Sequence record: OQ599310
Reading direction: 5' to 3' (one strand)
Length of the DNA: 64,000 nt
Source: Escherichia phage 55
Shown here: piece by piece, positions 7,929 to 21,579 of the stretch
How the letters are laid out: the number at the start of each line of letters is the position of its first letter
Numbering within the stretch: position 1 is the first letter of the stretch
Program-made: the position numbers and the translations under genes
Notes under the pieces: generated by a model
Told to the model about the DNA's origin: nothing
The model's input: only the letters and a program-made list of their open reading frames with translations
Databases searched by the model: none

Positions 7929-9371
7929 GTGGTAGAAATTATTTTGTCTCATCTAGTATATGACCAGGCTTATTTTTCTAAGGTCTGGCCTTATATGGAT
8001 TCTGATTACTTTGAGCGTGGACCGGCAAAAAACGTCTTTAAAATTATAAAGAGCCACGTTAACGAATATAATGCAATGCCATCTATCAATGCATTAAAGG
8101 TGGCTTTAGATAACAGTTCTTTAACTGAAGCTGAATATAAAGGAACTTCAGACCTAATTGAAAAATTGGCTGATACTCCTGAAGACCATGAATGGCTGGT
8201 TAAAGAAACTGAGAAATATGTCCAGCAAAAAGCGATGTATAATGCTACATCCAAAATCATTGAGATTCAGTCTAATGCTGAACTACCTCCAGAACAACGT
8301 AACAAGAAAATGCCTGACGTAGGAGCTATTCCTGATATTATGCGTCAAGCACTTTCAATTTCGTTCGATAGTTATGTTGGACATGACTGGATGGAAGACT
8401 ACGAAGCACGCTGGCTTTCTTATCTAAATAAAGCACGTAAGGTCCCGTTCAAATTAAACATTTTGAATAAAATCACCAAAGGCGGTGCAGAAACAGGTAC
8501 ACTAAACGTTTTAATGGCTGGTGTTAACGTTGGTAAATCTTTAGGCCTTTGTTCACTTGCTGCAGATTATCTTCAAACAGGACATAATGTTCTTTATATT
8601 TCCATGGAAATGGCTGAAGAAGTTTGTGCTAAGCGTATAGATGCAAATATGCTTGACGTATCGCTCGATGATATCGATGATGGTAACGTATCTTATGCTG
8701 AATATAAAGCCAAGATGGAAAAATGGCGTTCAAAATCCACATTAGGACGTTTAGTAGTTAAACAGTATCCTACCGGCGGAGCTAATGCTAATACATTCCG
8801 TGCATTGCTTAATGAATTGAAACTCAAGAAGAACTTTGTGCCATCTGTAATCATGGTTGATTACTTAGGTATTTGTGGGTCTTGTCGTATCAGAGTTTAC
8901 ACTGAAAATAGCTACACATTAGTTAAAGCTATCGCAGAAGAACTTCGTGCATTAGCAGTAGAATCTGAAACAGTTCTATGGACTGCAGCTCAAGTAGGAC
9001 GTGCAGCATGGGATGCTTCGGACATGAACATGAGTGATATCGCAGAATCAGCAGGTTTACCAGCAACGGCAGATTTCATGTTGGCCGTAATTGAAACCGA
9101 AGAACTTGCACAAGCTGAACAACAACTTATCAAACAAATCAAATCACGATATGGCGATAAGAATAAGTGGAACAAGTTCTTGATGGGTGTACGTAAAGGC
9201 AACCAGAAATGGATTGAGATTGAGCAAGAAGGCGTGAACACCCCTAACACCGTAAATGAAAACGCAGGTGCTCAGATGCGTCAGGCAGAGGTGAATCGTA
9301 CGGAACGCGTAGGTAAAGCCAAAGCAACACGTGCTGACCTAGATAGCTTAGCCAATGAGTTAAAATTTTAA
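7929..9371 (+). CDS. 41: gp41 replicative DnaB-like helicase
   Basis: N-terminus MVEIILSHL..DQAYFSKVWPYMDS matches T4 gp41; Walker A GVNVGKS. Confidence 0.95.
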   Translation: MVEIILSHLVYDQAYFSKVWPYMDSDYFERGPAKNVFKIIKSHVNEYNAMPSINALKVALDNSSLTEAEYKGTSDLIEKLADTPEDHEWLVKETEKYVQQKAMYNATSKIIEIQSNAELPPEQRNKKMPDVGAIPDIMRQALSISFDSYVGHDWMEDYEARWLSYLNKARKVPFKLNILNKITKGGAETGTLNVLMAGVNVGKSLGLCSLAADYLQTGHNVLYISMEMAEEVCAKRIDANMLDVSLDDIDDGNVSYAEYKAKMEKWRSKSTLGRLVVKQYPTGGANANTFRALLNELKLKKNFVPSVIMVDYLGICGSCRIRVYTENSYTLVKAIAEELRALAVESETVLWTAAQVGRAAWDASDMNMSDIAESAGLPATADFMLAVIETEELAQAEQQLIKQIKSRYGDKNKWNKFLMGVRKGNQKWIEIEQEGVNTPNTVNENAGAQMRQAEVNRTERVGKAKATRADLDSLANELKF

Positions 9372-9376
9372 TAAAA

Positions 9377-9396
9377 AGGAGACTTCGGTCTCCTTT
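9377..9396 (+). terminator. stem-loop GGAGACTTCGGTCTCC after gene 41 (weak U-run)
   Basis: perfect hairpin with UUCG loop. Confidence 0.4.
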
Positions 9397-9400
9397 CGGG

Positions 9401-9430
9401 GTTTACATCTTCCTCTAGGCATGATATGAT
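9401..9430 (+). promoter_or_regulatory. T4-type early promoter
   Basis: GTTTAC then TATGAT with about 18 bp spacer. Confidence 0.45.
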
Positions 9431-9458
9431 GAACTTACACAAACCAAGAGGAAACATT

Positions 9459-9833
9459 ATGAATATGTCTCAAGCAATTTTTACTGCAATCACCGAAAAC
9501 ACAACTGTTGAAGTAGTTTCTCCGCTGGCAACCTACGTTATTCTTGCTCCTAAAACTATTGTATCTCGTATGGAAAACATGGGCAAACGTATCGTACAAA
9601 TCGTTGGAGCCGGAAATCAAAAACTTGATTATCTGCGAACCATCAAAGCTTATGAACATTTCCAACTCGAAAAAGGTTCTCCTATCCAGGTAGAACTCGT
9701 AAATGGTGATATCGTTCGAGCAATGTTCCATCATTTCTATGCATTGAATGACCCATCTAAAGCGGTTCGTTTAATTGCATACGACGCAAACCAAAACGAA
9801 ATCAATGCAGATATATCTAAATTACGTTTTTAA
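9459..9833 (+). CDS. hypothetical protein
   Basis: ORF with AGAGGAAA RBS. Confidence 0.5.
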   Translation: MNMSQAIFTAITENTTVEVVSPLATYVILAPKTIVSRMENMGKRIVQIVGAGNQKLDYLRTIKAYEHFQLEKGSPIQVELVNGDIVRAMFHHFYALNDPSKAVRLIAYDANQNEINADISKLRF

Positions 9834-9866
9834 GTTTACTTCTCCAGTAGTTGTGTTATTATAGAC
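9834..9866 (+). promoter_or_regulatory. T4-type early promoter with flanking 10-bp inverted repeat (CCAGTAGTTG / CAACTACTGG)
   Basis: GTTTAC at 9834-9839, TATTAT -10 at 17 bp; inverted repeat 9844-9853 and 9871-9880. Confidence 0.5.
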
Positions 9867-9888
9867 CTATCAACTACTGGAGAACAAA

Positions 9889-10206
9889 ATGAAAACCATC
9901 GATTGTAAAGCAGAATTTAAGATTTTTTATCACGGTTCAAGTAGTTCAGTTAACATCGAAAACATGCTTTGTCCTCCTGAAGAAACAGGAGTTCTGTCTG
10001 AAACTGGACGTAAGAAAAACTTGGATCGTGTATTCTTTACTGAAGATATCGGTTTAGCAAAGATTTATGCAGGACGAGCAGCACGCTCTTATGGAGGTGA
10101 ACCACGTCTCTATCGAGTAATTTCTCCGGTAGACGTAGTTCAAATGAATGATACTAAAGGTGCTACAGTTTATCACGCTGAATGGGCCTTCTGTGAGGAA
10201 ATCTAA
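9889..10206 (+). CDS. hypothetical protein
   Basis: ORF downstream of early promoter. Confidence 0.5.
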   Translation: MKTIDCKAEFKIFYHGSSSSVNIENMLCPPEETGVLSETGRKKNLDRVFFTEDIGLAKIYAGRAARSYGGEPRLYRVISPVDVVQMNDTKGATVYHAEWAFCEEI

Positions 10207-10207
10207 A

Positions 10208-10411
10208 ATGGAAAATATGGCTAAAGTGTTGTTTATTGGTTGGTTTGAAAATGGGAATATGTTTACCAAAGAAGTTACCATGGACGTGTCTGATAAAGAC
10301 CAAATCCTACGGGCCACTTCTCAATTTGCTGAAGTAAATAAAGCTTTAGTTGAAGCATTTGTTGATGATAAGAAAGTTTTTGAATCCGATTGGCGTAAAG
10401 AGGAAATCTAA
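10208..10411 (+). CDS. hypothetical protein
   Basis: ORF; start inside repeated junction GAGGAAATCTAAAATGGAA. Confidence 0.45.
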   Translation: MENMAKVLFIGWFENGNMFTKEVTMDVSDKDQILRATSQFAEVNKALVEAFVDDKKVFESDWRKEEI

Positions 10412-10412
10412 A

Positions 10413-10553
10413 ATGGAAGAAGTAGAATGTGTAGTGTGTGGTTGTAGCGTCTATGAAGACGAAGCTGTTTTCGATGCATATGATAATGCGACTTGTTTAG
10501 ACTGCGACCGTGAATCTGAAGAACATGCTTACGAGCATGAAGACGAGGAATAA
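10413..10553 (+). CDS. small acidic Cys-x-x-Cys protein (putative zinc ribbon)
   Basis: CVVCGC...CLDC motif pair; same repeated junction context as previous gene. Confidence 0.35.
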   Translation: MEEVECVVCGCSVYEDEAVFDAYDNATCLDCDRESEEHAYEHEDEE

Positions 10554-10565
10554 AATAAAATAATT

Positions 10566-10598
10566 GTTTACAGGGGTCTATGGTAGTGATACTATAGA
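10566..10598 (+). promoter_or_regulatory. T4-type early promoter (with GGTCTAT/ATAGACC inverted repeat)
   Basis: GTTTAC at 10566-10571, TACTATAG -10 region. Confidence 0.5.
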
Positions 10599-10623
10599 CC
10601 TATCAACTATAGAGGAAATTGAA

Positions 10624-10992
10624 ATGAAAAAATTAATCGCTTTAGCAATGGTATTTGGATTAACCGGATGTGGTGCTCATGGCTTTATCCCTAATAACGT
10701 TGGCCAATTGATTTATAACCCGAATGTTAAACAGTATAACCAACCTAAAGTTGAAGTGGAAGACCCGGTTACTGTAGGTAATCGAATGATTCAAGCTGAT
10801 GCTCATGCTCAACGTTATCGTGACTCTGATACTGTAGCTATGTCAAAAGAACAACGCGTTAAAGAACATTGTCTACAGGCTACTGAAATCGCATTTATTC
10901 GCTATGTTGAAACAACTGGTAAAGAGCCTACCCAGAAACAAATCGCGAATAACTACGTCCAGTGTATTGAACGTTTAAACAAATTTAATTAA
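10624..10992 (+). CDS. putative lipoprotein
   Basis: N-terminus MKKLIALAMVFGLTGC has signal peptide plus lipobox. Confidence 0.5.
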   Translation: MKKLIALAMVFGLTGCGAHGFIPNNVGQLIYNPNVKQYNQPKVEVEDPVTVGNRMIQADAHAQRYRDSDTVAMSKEQRVKEHCLQATEIAFIRYVETTGKEPTQKQIANNYVQCIERLNKFN

Positions 10993-10995
10993 TTG

Positions 10996-11028
10996 GTTTA
11001 CACCAAAGTTAAACCAAGATACTATAAA
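10996..11028 (+). promoter_or_regulatory. T4-type early promoter
   Basis: GTTTAC then GATACTATAAA. Confidence 0.45.
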
Positions 11029-11053
11029 CATAACAAATCAAGAGGAAATTAAC

Positions 11054-11302
11054 ATGGAATTATTCGTGGCTAGTTCAGTAGCAGTTTTAATCGCAGGTAT
11101 TGGTTCAATCATCATTTACATGTTGCCTTGGGTAATCGCACTTATTCGTGGCACAAAAAGCACAACAGCAATCTTCTTTGTATCTTTACTCTTTAACTGG
11201 ACGATGGTTGGTTGGATTGGAACTTTAATTTGGTCTATCGTTGCCGAAAAGAAATCGGCTCAGCAGCCTCAACAAGTAATTATTATTCGCGAAAAAGAAT
11301 AA
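11054..11302 (+). CDS. small integral membrane protein (two TM helices)
   Basis: strongly hydrophobic 82-aa translation. Confidence 0.5.
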   Translation: MELFVASSVAVLIAGIGSIIIYMLPWVIALIRGTKSTTAIFFVSLLFNWTMVGWIGTLIWSIVAEKKSAQQPQQVIIIREKE

Positions 11303-11306
11303 ACTT

Positions 11307-11340
11307 GTTTACATTATAGATGGACTATAGTATAGTAGTC
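11307..11340 (+). promoter_or_regulatory. T4-type early promoter
   Basis: GTTTAC then TATAGTATAGTAG. Confidence 0.45.
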
Positions 11341-11365
11341 CTATCAAATCAACTAAGGAGTTAAA

Positions 11366-11659
11366 ATGAAAAAGTTATCATTGGCAGCAATCCTACTTGC
11401 AGTATCATGTGCACCGGCTCCAGTTACGGCAGGTTATGATAAAGACCTCTGTGAGTGGTCAATGACTGCAAATCAAGAAGATGTTGAACAACAAATCTTC
11501 TCTGATATCATGAACATCACTAAACGAGACCGTCCTAATATGGTTAATAAAGTTGTTGAACAACTTAAGTCTGGCGGTATCATGCAGTACAACTATGTTT
11601 TGTATTGTGACCCTAATTTCGATAACAAAGATATCGTAACCGAAATCACAGGTGAATAA
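11366..11659 (+). CDS. secreted or lipoprotein-like small protein
   Basis: signal peptide MKKLSLAAILLAVSCAPAP. Confidence 0.5.
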   Translation: MKKLSLAAILLAVSCAPAPVTAGYDKDLCEWSMTANQEDVEQQIFSDIMNITKRDRPNMVNKVVEQLKSGGIMQYNYVLYCDPNFDNKDIVTEITGE

Positions 11660-11660
11660 T

Positions 11661-12311
11661 ATGATTTATTATATGCACAAAAACGCACCATTTAAATATG
11701 GTAAATTTCCTAATGCACAATGTTATAATATAACGCCGAATGAAAATAATAACGGATACCATATTGGTGTAATTTTTGTAATTGTTAAAGATAACGAAAT
11801 TGTTGCCTGGGCAGATTTTAAAGGTACAACATATGATGTTAATCCAGTGCCTTTCACATATTATAATTTAATGGATTTAGCATACGACTATAATTGGTTT
11901 ACTCATGATACTCTAGCACATGTTGAAGGCGTAGGATTTGACATCTCTTATTCTAGTTATTCATTATGTCCTATGAGCCGAGCTCACGGTAAAGATGTAT
12001 CATATCTTTCAATTCGGAAACGTGTAAACTTCAAACGTAGTACAGAGTATGTTGGTGGACTCTTTGTTAAAGATAATAAAATAACTCGTATTAGTTATCC
12101 TTTAAGTGTAGGTCAAAAAGATGTTGATGTTGATTTAGACTTAACTGAAAGTAACATTAATCGTATTGCTTCTGTATATTTTGATATCGATGAAAAAATT
12201 GTAGTGTGTGGATACGAATTACCACCTGAAGAAAAGGTTGAAGCAATTGAAGTCGAATTAGAAATTTCTGTTGATGACCAAATATTTAATGCATTTATGA
12301 ATCGAGGTTAA
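11661..12311 (+). CDS. hypothetical protein
   Basis: ORF; TAATATG junction with AGGTGA RBS. Confidence 0.45.
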   Translation: MIYYMHKNAPFKYGKFPNAQCYNITPNENNNGYHIGVIFVIVKDNEIVAWADFKGTTYDVNPVPFTYYNLMDLAYDYNWFTHDTLAHVEGVGFDISYSSYSLCPMSRAHGKDVSYLSIRKRVNFKRSTEYVGGLFVKDNKITRISYPLSVGQKDVDVDLDLTESNINRIASVYFDIDEKIVVCGYELPPEEKVEAIEVELEISVDDQIFNAFMNRG

Positions 12312-12312
12312 A

Positions 12313-12510
12313 ATGACTACTGCAATTTGCACTGGTTCTAAAATTAGTGTTTTTACAAGTTTTGAAGATTATGAAGTTGTTTCAAAACACCAATACAATA
12401 TTAGCGTAAAAGCTAATGATGGTGTAATTTGGAATATTCCACACTATGAAGACACTACATATGAAGTCACAGATGCGAACGGTGATAAAGCGATCTTTGT
12501 GATTGATTAA
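12313..12510 (+). CDS. hypothetical protein
   Basis: ORF tightly packed after previous gene. Confidence 0.4.
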   Translation: MTTAICTGSKISVFTSFEDYEVVSKHQYNISVKANDGVIWNIPHYEDTTYEVTDANGDKAIFVID

Positions 12511-12529
12511 ATATACTCAGGAGGTACCT

Positions 12530-12997
12530 ATGGGTATTATTAACACTGCAATAGATTCTGTTTACGCATATAAGTTTATTCGACTAATGCAAAAACCTTT
12601 TACCGAATGGAAAGCGTACGAAGCCAAAATAATCGACGAACGTGGAAGTGTTCTTAAACGTCCTTCTACTCCCGAAGAGAAAGCGGCTTATACACCTTTT
12701 CATGCTTCAGTTCGTTCAATGAAGCGAATGATGAGTACTGTTCCAGGTCTTAATGGAATGGCCTCAATGATGTCTGCCTGGAGTGCTGTAGCTTCACGCT
12801 ATAACATTACTGAAGAACAACAGAAAGAAATATTTAAAGAACTCCCTTTATTTGAGGATATGGTTGCTGGTGATTCAGGTGGCAGTCCTCAAGCTATTGC
12901 ATCAGGAACAACTACAGGTGCAGTCGTAAATAAAGGTCCAGAACAAATTCCTTCCAAGAAAAGAAAGCGAATTAAAGTAAATATTAATAAGTTGTGA
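12530..12997 (+). CDS. hypothetical protein
   Basis: ORF with AGGAGG RBS. Confidence 0.5.
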   Translation: MGIINTAIDSVYAYKFIRLMQKPFTEWKAYEAKIIDERGSVLKRPSTPEEKAAYTPFHASVRSMKRMMSTVPGLNGMASMMSAWSAVASRYNITEEQQKEIFKELPLFEDMVAGDSGGSPQAIASGTTTGAVVNKGPEQIPSKKRKRIKVNINKL

Positions 12998-13036
12998 TAA
13001 GATGGCCTTATTAATTTAAGGCCTCTGGAGAATACT

Positions 13037-14059
13037 ATGGCTGAATGGATAGATAATGAATTTGCTTATCGTGCGTTTTCTCACCTACCTCGTTTTAGAC
13101 AAATCAATAATTCAAGCACATTTAAATTAACATTTCGATGCCCAGTTTGTGGCGACTCTCAGACAGATGCAATGAAAGCCCGCGGATGGTATTATGGCGG
13201 TACTCCAGGTAATGTGCATTGCTATAACTGTCAATATCATAATACAATTTCTGGATACTTAAAAGAGTACGATGAAGAGCTTTATCGCGAGTATCTAATG
13301 GAAGTTCGTAAAGAAAAAGCTAGAATGGAACCAAAGATTGAAAAGGTTCCTGAAGCTAAGCCGGAGCCAGAGAAAAAGACTATAAATTCTTTGCCGTCTT
13401 GTTCTCGTCTGGACAAGCTGCCTGAAGAGCATCCTATTGTGAAATATGTTAAGTCTCGGTGTATTCCTAAAGAATCGTGGAACAGATTATGGTTCACATT
13501 AGAATGGCCCAAATTGGTCAACAAGATTCAACCTGGTACGTATAAGAAAGAGATTCCCGAACCACGTTTAGTGATTCCTATTTTTAATAAAGACGGGAAG
13601 GCCGAGTCATTCCAAGGACGTGCACTTCGTAAAGATGCTCCTCAGAAATATATCACTATTAAAGCGTTTGAGTCTGCAACAAAAATTTATGGTGTTGAAC
13701 GTGTTAAGGAAGGGGACGTCTGGGTAATGGAAGGCCCTATTGATAGTTTATTCATACCCAATGCAATCGCTATTACAGGCGGCTCAATAGATTTAGATGT
13801 GGTACCATTTAAAGAACGTCGGGTATGGGTAATGGATAATGAACCTAGGCATCCGGATACTATAGCTCGTATGAAGCGATTAGTTGATGCAGGCGAACGT
13901 GTCATGTTCTGGGACCGAGCTCCATGGAGATCAAAGGATGTGAATGATATGGTAATGAAAGAAAATGCAACACCACAAGAAATTTTAGAATATATGAAAC
14001 AGAATATTTCAAGTGGGTTGCATGCTAAAATGAGATTATCTCGTTATTCGAAGATTTAA
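13037..14059 (+). CDS. 61: gp61 DNA primase
   Basis: 340 aa; N-terminal zinc ribbon CPVCGDS...CYNCQ; TOPRIM-like EGPIDSL and DNEPRHPD motifs; position next to 41. Confidence 0.9.
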   Translation: MAEWIDNEFAYRAFSHLPRFRQINNSSTFKLTFRCPVCGDSQTDAMKARGWYYGGTPGNVHCYNCQYHNTISGYLKEYDEELYREYLMEVRKEKARMEPKIEKVPEAKPEPEKKTINSLPSCSRLDKLPEEHPIVKYVKSRCIPKESWNRLWFTLEWPKLVNKIQPGTYKKEIPEPRLVIPIFNKDGKAESFQGRALRKDAPQKYITIKAFESATKIYGVERVKEGDVWVMEGPIDSLFIPNAIAITGGSIDLDVVPFKERRVWVMDNEPRHPDTIARMKRLVDAGERVMFWDRAPWRSKDVNDMVMKENATPQEILEYMKQNISSGLHAKMRLSRYSKI

Positions 14060-14253
14060 ACAAGCCCTATAATAGCAAAGGCCAAATCAACTACAGTATC
14101 CAATGGAACAGAAGGAACCATAACACCATGGGCAACTAACAATGGTGCAATCCCGAAGTTCCATGAAATAATGCCACCTACAACTATTGCAGCGATAGCA
14201 GTTTTCTTTTTATTGCCTTTAATAGCGTTGATTAACGATGGAAGTTTAAACAT
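14056..14253 (-). CDS. small hydrophobic membrane protein on the opposite strand to the surrounding early genes
   Basis: 65-aa ORF, mostly hydrophobic (AIAAIVVGGIISWNFGIAPLLVAHGV); fills the gap between 61 and 56. Confidence 0.35.
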   Translation of the reverse strand: MFKLPSLINAIKGNKKKTAIAAIVVGGIISWNFGIAPLLVAHGVMVPSVPLDTVVDLAFAIIGLV

Positions 14254-14341
14254 AATATCTCCTTAGTTACCTATTATTTATTACGCTTTATAAAATTAAT
14301 GGTAGAATTAACTTTCTTATACTGAATTGAAAGGAAAAATA

Positions 14342-14863
14342 ATGGCACACTTTAACGAATGTTCACAACTTATTTCTGGTGTTGATAAAGCAGAAGAAGC
14401 TTATTTTAATGCTCTGATTCACGAAGATAAAGACCCACTGCAGGTAATGCTTGATATGCAGAAATCTTTACAGGTTCGTCTGGCAAATGACAAGCCTGAA
14501 CATAACAAACATCCTGATGAATTGGCTACTGCTGGTGATGTTGTTGATTGGCTGCGTAATCAGAAAGATTATATTGATGATGAATTCCGTGAACTGCTGA
14601 CTTCACTTGGTGGTATGAGCAATGGTGAAAAAGCCGCTAGCTCTGTATGGAAGCCATGGAAAGCACAACATGCTGAATATCGTAATCGTCGTATTGATGA
14701 ACTGTCTCCTGAAGACCAACTGGAAATTAAGTTTGAAATGATTGATATTCTCCATTTCGTTCTGAACATGTTCCAAGGTCTTGGTCTTACAGCAGAAGAA
14801 ATCTTTAAACTTTATTACCTGAAAAATGCTGAAAATTTCGCACGTCAAGACCGAGGTTATTAA
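14342..14863 (+). CDS. 56: dCTP pyrophosphatase (dCTPase-dUTPase), gene 56
   Basis: MAHFNEC...PLQVMLDMQ...ETAGDVVDW...EIFKLYYLKN..NFARQDRGY matches T4 gp56. Confidence 0.85.
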   Translation: MAHFNECSQLISGVDKAEEAYFNALIHEDKDPLQVMLDMQKSLQVRLANDKPEHNKHPDELATAGDVVDWLRNQKDYIDDEFRELLTSLGGMSNGEKAASSVWKPWKAQHAEYRNRRIDELSPEDQLEIKFEMIDILHFVLNMFQGLGLTAEEIFKLYYLKNAENFARQDRGY

Positions 14864-21549: not shown

Positions 21550-21579
21550 GTTTACAACCAAGGATGGTTGGAGTATAAT
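21550..21579 (+). promoter_or_regulatory. T4-type early promoter with inverted repeat (ACAACCA/TGGTTGG)
   Basis: GTTTAC then TATAAT at 18 bp. Confidence 0.55.

Follow-up and report, generated by a model that had tools for sequence, protein, structure and literature searches.

The interval between genes 41 and 61 of Escherichia phage 55 (sequence record OQ599310) raises the question of what its small genes, at positions 9459 to 12,997, encode and how they came to lie there. A first-pass annotation of the 64,000-nt stretch analyzed here (the window) had described a 3.6-kb insert of small genes for lipoprotein, membrane and secreted proteins, placed between two genes that were said to be essentially adjacent in T4. 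Our analysis indicated that the interval very probably holds a conserved, already annotated early accessory block of the RB69-type (Mosigvirus) T-even phages. By homology, the classical pair of T4 superinfection-exclusion proteins is represented among its products, the protein with two transmembrane segments being Imm and the signal-peptide protein being Spackle. The exclusion role that had been guessed for the envelope proteins was therefore right, by homology, for these two.

The block between genes 41 and 61

The window derives from a Mosigvirus (RB69-like) T-even phage; bases 9300-13100 were 99.4% identical in nucleotide sequence to Escherichia phage LH01 at 100% coverage, and the whole block was present at a coverage of at least 80% in 145 phage records. 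Ten plus-strand open reading frames (ORFs), each with a Shine-Dalgarno (SD) sequence and separated by gaps of 1-87 nt, were found between genes 41 and 61 in the order orfA, orfB, dmd, orfC, imm.1, imm, sp, adfA, orfD, orfE. They are listed here, followed by the flanking genes.

9459..9833, plus strand: orfA, 124 aa, homologue of RB69ORF041c (phrog_10668, 3e-86; 100% identical to RB69)
9889..10206, plus strand: orfB, 105 aa, homologue of RB69ORF040c with a minimal ADP-ribosyltransferase (ART) fold, first gene of the predicted orfB-dmd-orfC unit
10208..10411, plus strand: dmd, 67 aa, Dhakavirus-like allele (Pfam Dmd, 6.4e-23)
10413..10553, plus strand: orfC, 46 aa, acidic (pI 4.05), with five cysteines (CxxCxC...CxxC) (phrog_13952, 2.5e-29)
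10624..10992, plus strand: imm.1, 122-aa predicted lipoprotein, DUF5481 (PF17578; Pfam 3.8e-9; 99% identical to RB69 imm.1)
11054..11302, plus strand: imm, 82 aa, superinfection immunity membrane protein (Pfam Imm_superinfect, 1.8e-15; phrog_1039)
11366..11659, plus strand: sp (spackle), 97-aa predicted precursor of the periplasmic gp5 lysozyme inhibitor (Pfam T4_Spackle, 1.1e-42)
11661..12311, plus strand: adfA (T4 61.2), 216 aa, anti-DarT factor A (Pfam AdfA, 3.8e-118)
12313..12510, plus strand: orfD, 65 aa, homologue of RB69ORF033c (phrog_3249, 2.2e-33)
12530..12997, plus strand: orfE, 155 aa, with a 61.1-like C-terminal third (phrog_2086, 1e-73; phrog_1823 over residues 100-151)
7929..9371, plus strand: gene 41, replicative helicase, left flank (annotated as DnaB-like helicase or gp41 in LH01, SHSML-52-1 and RB69)
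13037..14059, plus strand: gene 61, primase, right flank (annotated as DNA primase in LH01, SHSML-52-1 and RB69)

All ten block proteins matched a PHROG family (E 2.5e-29 to 5e-130), and these matches, together with the retention of the block in 145 records, indicated that the genes are real and not chance ORFs; the conservation expected of them was thus borne out. The coordinates first given for imm.1, imm and sp proved exact, whereas the number of small ORFs, put at "nine or so", came to ten. The same ORFs were called in the same order in the annotated records of LH01, SHSML-52-1 and RB69, which already carry the names "Dmd", "immunity to superinfection" and "spackle periplasmic" (and, in RB69, "imm.1"). 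The block is therefore already known, its arrangement having been annotated in RB69 in 2003. Minus-strand ORFs in the region were rejected as candidates, being short, overlapping conserved plus-strand genes and standing unannotated in every related record examined.

According to another proposal, this phage acquired the block horizontally, as a 3.6-kb insertion of novel envelope genes that other T-even phages lack. In its favor, the interval is about 1.9 kb longer than that of T4, and neither the T4 interval nor the searches made at the Tequatrovirus level turned up orfA, orfB, orfC or orfD. However, the T4 record places five genes (dmd, 61.4/tifA, sp, 61.2/adfA and 61.1) over 1648 bp between genes 41 and 61, and four of these five are homologous to genes found here. 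The two genes are thus not essentially adjacent in T4, and the block is no 3.6-kb insert relative to it; the same interval is filled in T4, and the same block is carried by RB69 and by over 140 further Mosigvirus records. A compositionally foreign insert was also rejected, as the GC content of 0.30-0.42 lay within the range of the flanks. Envelope proteins, as called by simple heuristics, made up only three of the ten products. The description of a lipoprotein, membrane and secreted block therefore held for those three, whereas most of the genes encode predicted cytoplasmic counter-defense functions (dmd, adfA and the ART-fold protein). Taken together, these observations leave an insertion of this kind hardly credible. 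With interval lengths of 1648 bp in T4, 2379 bp in JS98 and 3709 bp in RB69, sequence comparison identifies the block as a longer version, by about 1.9 kb relative to T4, of a 41-61 region that is variable across the Tevenvirinae. The premise about T4 is corrected by the small genes that T4 does hold there.

Exclusion proteins, early promoters and counter-defense genes

The assignment of Imm was supported by a score of 56.9 bits against the PF14373 cutoff of 27.9, by 64% identity to T4 Imm and by hydrophobic segments at residues 3-21 and 40-58. Spackle scored 145 bits against a cutoff of 27 for PF25676, over profile positions 1-96 of 96, matched the solved structures 6x6o and 7cn6 (1.4e-39) and shared 66% identity with T4 Sp, its two cysteines aligning with Cys29 and Cys81 of the T4 protein. 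An export signal was recognized in its hydrophobic residues 4-22, and the predicted mature start, GYDKD, aligned with that of T4. The export signals first ascribed to the three envelope proteins were all recovered by these heuristics, as a lipobox in Imm.1, two hydrophobic segments in Imm and an N-terminal hydrophobic signal in Spackle. T4 Spackle is cleaved to a 75-aa periplasmic protein, with a Cys29-Cys81 disulfide in the crystal structure, and in its complex with gp5 lysozyme the tail-spike lysozyme is inhibited (PMC7677548). Imm acts in the inner membrane, stopping DNA transfer, according to a note in the T4 record and older T4 literature cited in PMC7677548.

Early expression of these genes was predicted from a promoter motif, GTTTAC(A/T)-N16/17-TAYWRT, found in the gap ahead of orfB, imm.1, imm and sp. 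This motif occurred 15 times in the window, always on the plus strand, against 0.1 occurrences expected in shuffles, and in the region it occupied each intergenic gap of at least 55 nt once. The looser form GTTTAC-N16/17-TAnnnT was present in five gaps, with stems of -13 to -23 kcal/mol in four of them and a weaker one, at -6.6, in the imm gap. The claim that imm.1, imm and sp each lie behind their own early promoter is, at the level of the motif, well supported, as one lies in the gap ahead of each. The promoter-related features of the block are as follows.

9375..9396, plus strand: stem-loop (core GGAGAC-UUCG-GUCUCC) between the end of gene 41 and the first early promoter, close to both
9401..9430, plus strand: early-promoter-like site ahead of orfA, GTTTACA-N17-TATGAT, TG-extended (a TATGAT variant of the motif)
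9834..9862, plus strand: early-promoter motif ahead of orfB, embedded in a 19-nt inverted repeat
10566..10595, plus strand: early-promoter motif ahead of imm.1, its -10 box covered by a stem-loop, at the right boundary of a swap relative to RB69
10996..11025, plus strand: early-promoter motif match ahead of imm
11307..11336, plus strand: early-promoter motif match ahead of sp

The gap after gene 41 folded at -22.9 kcal/mol over its whole length (RNAfold). Ahead of orfB, the inverted repeat (9835-9853 and 9871-9889) pairs the -35 region with the orfB SD at -21.7 kcal/mol; the SD would be sequestered in read-through transcripts, and transcripts from the local promoter would be made without the 5' arm, an arrangement that recalls a known T4 device for promoter-dependent translation. 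An Rfam scan of positions 9000-14500 on both strands gave no match at E <= 0.1, and a consensus terminator scan returned just two weak sites, within coding sequence and no more than in shuffles. Eleven exact matches to the motif (GTTTACW-N16/17-TAYWRT) were observed elsewhere in the window, all on the plus strand, at 21550, 23058, 32266, 32778, 35347, 35668, 38164, 52752, 60057, 61239 and 62645, where they mark other predicted early transcription units.

With about five early promoters, the block would be transcribed as the units orfA; orfB-dmd-orfC; imm.1; imm; and sp-adfA-orfD-orfE, in which the genes are spaced by 1-19 nt. The envelope half would supply proteins made right after infection that shut the cell to later T-even phages. 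From the inner membrane, Imm would block DNA transfer across the envelope. Spackle, after export to the periplasm, cleavage and formation of its disulfide, would bind the lysozyme domain of gp5, the tail spike of an incoming phage, and inhibit it. Imm.1, whose gene directly precedes imm, belongs to this half as a predicted lipoprotein. The cytoplasmic half would correspond to the "anti-toxin-antitoxin (TA) island" of T4, with Dmd directed against RnlA/LsoA-type toxins and AdfA against DarT, and the ART-fold orfB and Cys-rich orfC products would also belong to it. These biochemical activities are expected by analogy with T4 and RB69.

Dmd and AdfA were both recognized above their family cutoffs of 27 bits, Dmd at 81.3 bits (PF17587) and AdfA at 392.8 bits over its full length (PF23813), the latter with 67% identity to T4. 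At residue 168 of AdfA, which aligns with RB69 position 164, an Arg was found, as in RB69, where T4 has a His. A His at RB69 position 164 is needed to neutralize E. coli DarT1, and the RB69 Arg allele fails to do so (PMC11257639), suggesting that the target of AdfA in this phage is probably another DarT variant.

Dmd was 62% identical to T4 Dmd and 52% identical to RB69 Dmd, and the dmd-orfC DNA was about 78% identical to that of Dhakavirus JS98. From these comparisons, a Dhakavirus-like dmd plus orfC has replaced the dmd-tifA pair of RB69. A 40-column identity scan against RB69 placed the left edge of the replaced segment of about 400 bp at approximately 10,170-10,207, at the end of orfB, and the right edge at approximately 10,595, which is the -10 box of the imm.1 promoter and hence an intergenic promoter/stem-loop unit. 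This version of dmd-orfC was present at 99% identity or more in about 10 records, a minority of Mosigvirus phages, including LH01, LF82-4, LF82-9, LF82-41, Shf125875 and SHSML-52-1. The order in JS98 is an orfB-like gene, dmd, orfC (unannotated), tifA and sp, and in JS98-type phages orfC lies between dmd and tifA, sometimes unannotated. No homologue of TifA, the ToxN inhibitor of T4, was found adjacent to dmd, and a tblastn search of the window with the TifA proteins of T4 and RB69 gave nothing below E = 1.9. Neither orfB nor orfC could be taken as a divergent TifA, since orfB did not align with T4 TifA and orfC aligned with neither the RB69 nor the T4 protein.

A perfect 19-nt direct repeat, GAGGAAATCTAAAATGGAA, was found at 10195-10213 and 10400-10418, corresponding to the orfB/dmd and dmd/orfC junctions; in JS98 the same junction repeat around dmd is 15 nt long. 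The identical stop/SD/start junctions on both sides make dmd a 205-bp unit, and recombination between the two copies would delete or amplify dmd precisely.

Imm.1, orfB and the remaining genes

Imm.1 scored 37.3 bits against the DUF5481 cutoff of 27 and was 32% identical to T4 Imm.1 (BLASTP, E 1e-18). Its lipobox, LTGC at residues 13-16, follows a K-rich N-terminus and a hydrophobic core and has Gly at position +2. The lipobox Cys was also found in T4 Imm.1 and in the homologues P0005 and P0007, and was absent in P0002. The residue at +2 determines the sorting of lipoproteins, and as none of the four lipobox-bearing members (window, T4, P0005 and P0007) has Asp there, sorting to the outer membrane was predicted. 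In P0002, a metagenomic homologue with 45% identity, Phe replaces the lipobox Cys (LAGFSAHA), indicating that at least one member is probably a soluble secreted protein and not a lipoprotein. Two cysteines, C83 and C114, were invariant in the alignment.

The Imm.1 family is small: a word-indexed search yielded 3 proteins, and when 1.84 billion representatives were scanned in full with HMMER the number was 8. Of these, P0008 is a spurious coiled-coil repeat protein, P0003 the product of a chimeric contig, and two are T4-type copies that are truncated or frameshifted. Among cultured phages, Imm.1 was found in 656 records, falling into groups of at least 95% (RB69-type) and about 32-34% (T4/Tequatrovirus) identity. 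Imm occurred at 60% identity or more in 655 records, and about 385 more records had a distant Imm (Klebsiella, Salmonella and other phages). The matches of the Imm.1 search were all at the level of Mosigvirus or Tequatrovirus, with none for the groups with a distant Imm. Several homologues, including T4 Imm.1 itself (NC_000866, stretch L003, 12637-13014), are named "iduronate sulfatase" by RefSeq; for a 125-aa predicted lipoprotein this label looks like a propagated mis-annotation, as the homologue in the window matches DUF5481 alone in Pfam.

The first gene of the orfB-dmd-orfC unit encodes a protein with a confident ART fold and invariant H15, Y60 and E103, which place it in the H-Y-E clade. 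Its conservation was unusually high, with 64-77% identity in Klebsiella, Acinetobacter and Aeromonas phages, and no T4-type phage was among the sampled matches. The orfC product had a weak, sub-threshold match to the ECs_2282 CxxC zinc-binding family in the NCBIfam search, in which all matches of block proteins were sub-threshold.

Two further readings concern genes of the block that the homology to T4 explains less directly. Imm.1 could be a third superinfection-exclusion or envelope-protection factor that forms a two-gene module with Imm, possibly as an outer-membrane lipoprotein of the inner leaflet that, in the way of T5 Llp, would mask a receptor or keep the tail tube from penetrating. 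The position of the gene makes a joint role with Imm plausible, as imm.1 immediately precedes imm in two unrelated settings. In the window the pair is found between dmd/orfC and sp (and likewise ahead of sp in RB69), and in the three Tequatrovirus phages T4, Isf-Pm2 and fPS-90 it is flanked by genes 43 and 42. The nearly equal record counts of the two proteins, from which their co-occurrence was inferred, also fit such a module, as do the early-promoter motif of imm.1, the predicted outer-membrane sorting and the two invariant cysteines, which would suit a periplasmic disulfide. Imm.1 has also diverged from T4 further than Imm, Sp, Dmd and AdfA (32% against 62-67% identity), as would be expected of an interface in an arms race, although weak constraint would explain rapid divergence equally. 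Adjacency, however, is guilt by association, and immunity is reportedly conferred by cloned T4 imm by itself, as found by Lu and Henning. Dhakavirus Imm homologues lack an adjacent Imm.1 (at the one locus examined, in Dhakavirus dhabil, imm stands alone after gene 43), the distant Imm records lie beyond the reach of Imm.1 matches, and P0002 has no lipobox Cys. The AF2 (AlphaFold2) model, built from a 6-sequence alignment, was poor, with a predicted local distance difference test (pLDDT) score of 62.5 and confidence for the C-terminal helical hairpin alone. Foldseek against PDB gave no match with E < 3.6, a PDB sequence search of Imm.1 was empty, and a literature search returned nothing relevant on imm.1 and no paper on DUF5481. 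We therefore consider a role of Imm.1 as such a factor doubtful.

A similar proposal by Iyer et al. (2022, PMC9503650) pairs orfB with Dmd as a phage-borne TA-like system of ART toxin and Dmd antitoxin, to which orfC, in the slot of tifA, would add a further inhibitor of host toxins. The ART fold with its invariant residues is what such a toxin would require; orfB is translationally coupled to dmd across a 1-nt gap, and the two genes are adjacent in both Mosigvirus and Dhakavirus. The position of orfC in the dmd unit of the anti-TA island fits an inhibitor, and Srikant et al. (PMC9391042) named the other genes of that island "attractive anti-toxin candidates"; position, however, is the whole of the case for orfC. 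The pairing itself is at odds with the comparison to RB69, in which orfB is 98% identical but Dmd only 52%, with a recombination breakpoint at the orfB/dmd junction. A divergent Dmd beside a near-identical orfB would be unexpected if Dmd were its co-adapted antitoxin. In addition, T4 has dmd directly after gene 41 and no orfB in its 41-61 interval, no T4-type phage appeared among the sampled orfB matches, and orfB occurs in many Klebsiella, Acinetobacter and Aeromonas phages, in which orfB alone was looked at. This pairing, with orfC as an inhibitor, is thus a tentative suggestion on which the evidence leans toward the negative. It is likewise improbable, in our assessment, that Imm.1 is an overlooked exclusion component acting at the outer-membrane or receptor step, with Spackle at the peptidoglycan and Imm at the inner membrane, and, separately, that orfC is a new inhibitor of a host TA system.

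The reading that we prefer, a conserved early accessory block of Mosigvirus phages, has several points weighing against it as well. Signal-peptide, lipobox and transmembrane calls came from simple heuristics and not from SignalP, LipoP or TMHMM, and the promoters are motif matches. The AdfA of this phage carries the Arg allele that failed against DarT1 in RB69, and the activities of its alleles in general rest on homology. Imm.1, orfA, orfC, orfD and orfE, about 40% of the block, are without an assigned role.

Among these, orfA matched 134 phage records by tblastn, 132 of them at 95% identity or more, and appears essentially Mosigvirus-specific; no family was found for it in Pfam or NCBIfam. 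Matches to orfD were found in 265 phage records, among them those of JS98-type phages and of Salmonella phage STP4-a. The C-terminal part of the orfE product was 75% identical to T4 gp61.1 over 40 aa. It is a single ORF here and is split in the RB69 record (stretch L004, 4318-4784) as ORF032c and 61.1, two ORFs in different frames with a 4-nt overlap, suggesting a frameshift in the RB69 record, either real or a sequencing error. Beyond the block, a 65-aa hydrophobic ORF on the minus strand at 14056-14253, a homologue of RB69ORF029w, is oriented convergently to gene 61 and extends over the final 4 nt of that gene; the product of this ORF is probably a small membrane protein.

Comparison with known systems

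Annotation of the functions of Imm and Spackle in RB69-type phages goes back to 2003, and their T4 homologues have been characterized genetically and structurally. The role of Imm.1, the exchange of dmd-tifA for dmd-orfC and the target of the minimal ART bear on phage host range and on the design of phage cocktails, through cross-exclusion among therapeutic T-even phages and through sensitivity to ToxIN or DarTG.

The closest known arrangement is that of RB69 (NC_004928), in which genes 41 and 61 enclose ORF041c, ORF040c, dmd, 61.4, imm.1, imm, sp, 61.2, ORF033c, ORF032c and 61.1. Gene order and orientation are the same here, and orfA, orfB, Imm.1, Imm, Sp, AdfA, orfD and orfE are 92-100% identical to their RB69 counterparts. 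The differences lie in the divergent Dmd and in orfC, which has no counterpart in RB69 and stands at the place of RB69 tifA (61.4).

The T4 41-61 region, dmd-tifA-(sp)-adfA, was named an "anti-TA island" by Srikant et al. (2022, PMC9391042), in which Dmd inhibits RnlA/LsoA-type toxins, AdfA counteracts DarT and tifA lies between them (PMC9391042). The block resembles this island in its position and in the presence of dmd and adfA. Unlike it, the block has the additional orfA, orfB (ART fold), orfC and orfD, no tifA was found in the window, and its AdfA has Arg, not His, at the position that decides DarT1 neutralization.

The intergenic units resemble promoter-early stem-loops (PeSLs), as defined by Arbiol et al. 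2010 and Comeau et al. 2014 (PMC2839356, PMC4122927), whose cassettes were proposed as mediators of modular shuffling in T4-type phages (PMC2839356, PMC4122927). The units of the block qualify at the level of sequence, each being an intergenic early promoter with a stem-loop before small genes in a variable region. They share the AT-rich stop region, TTTACW-N17-TAYWAT, a stem-loop that overlaps the -10 box or flanks it, and then an SD and ATG, and one of them bounds a cassette swap. The stem-loop and promoter after gene 41 also fit the anatomy of a PeSL (PMC2839356). The left boundary of the swap, in contrast, is a junction between coding sequences, and the likeness to PeSLs is one of sequence alone.

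A possible analogue of Imm.1 is T5 Llp, a receptor-blocking lipoprotein. Imm.1 resembles it as a small early phage lipoprotein whose gene lies among exclusion functions and whose predicted site is the outer membrane, on its inner leaflet. Searches of Imm.1 against Pfam, against PDB sequences and with Foldseek, none of which was aimed at Llp, gave no Llp-like match, and the likeness is an analogy only.

The strongest likeness is to the exclusion proteins of T4. Imm and Sp are homologous to their T4 counterparts, have the same lengths and topology signals, retain the disulfide cysteines of Spackle and, as in T4, are predicted to be early, with early-promoter motifs. The placement of the genes differs, as imm and imm.1 of T4 are found some 6 kb away from sp, in the interval of genes 43 and 42, whereas here imm.1-imm is directly upstream of sp, so that both exclusion genes are clustered within the block.

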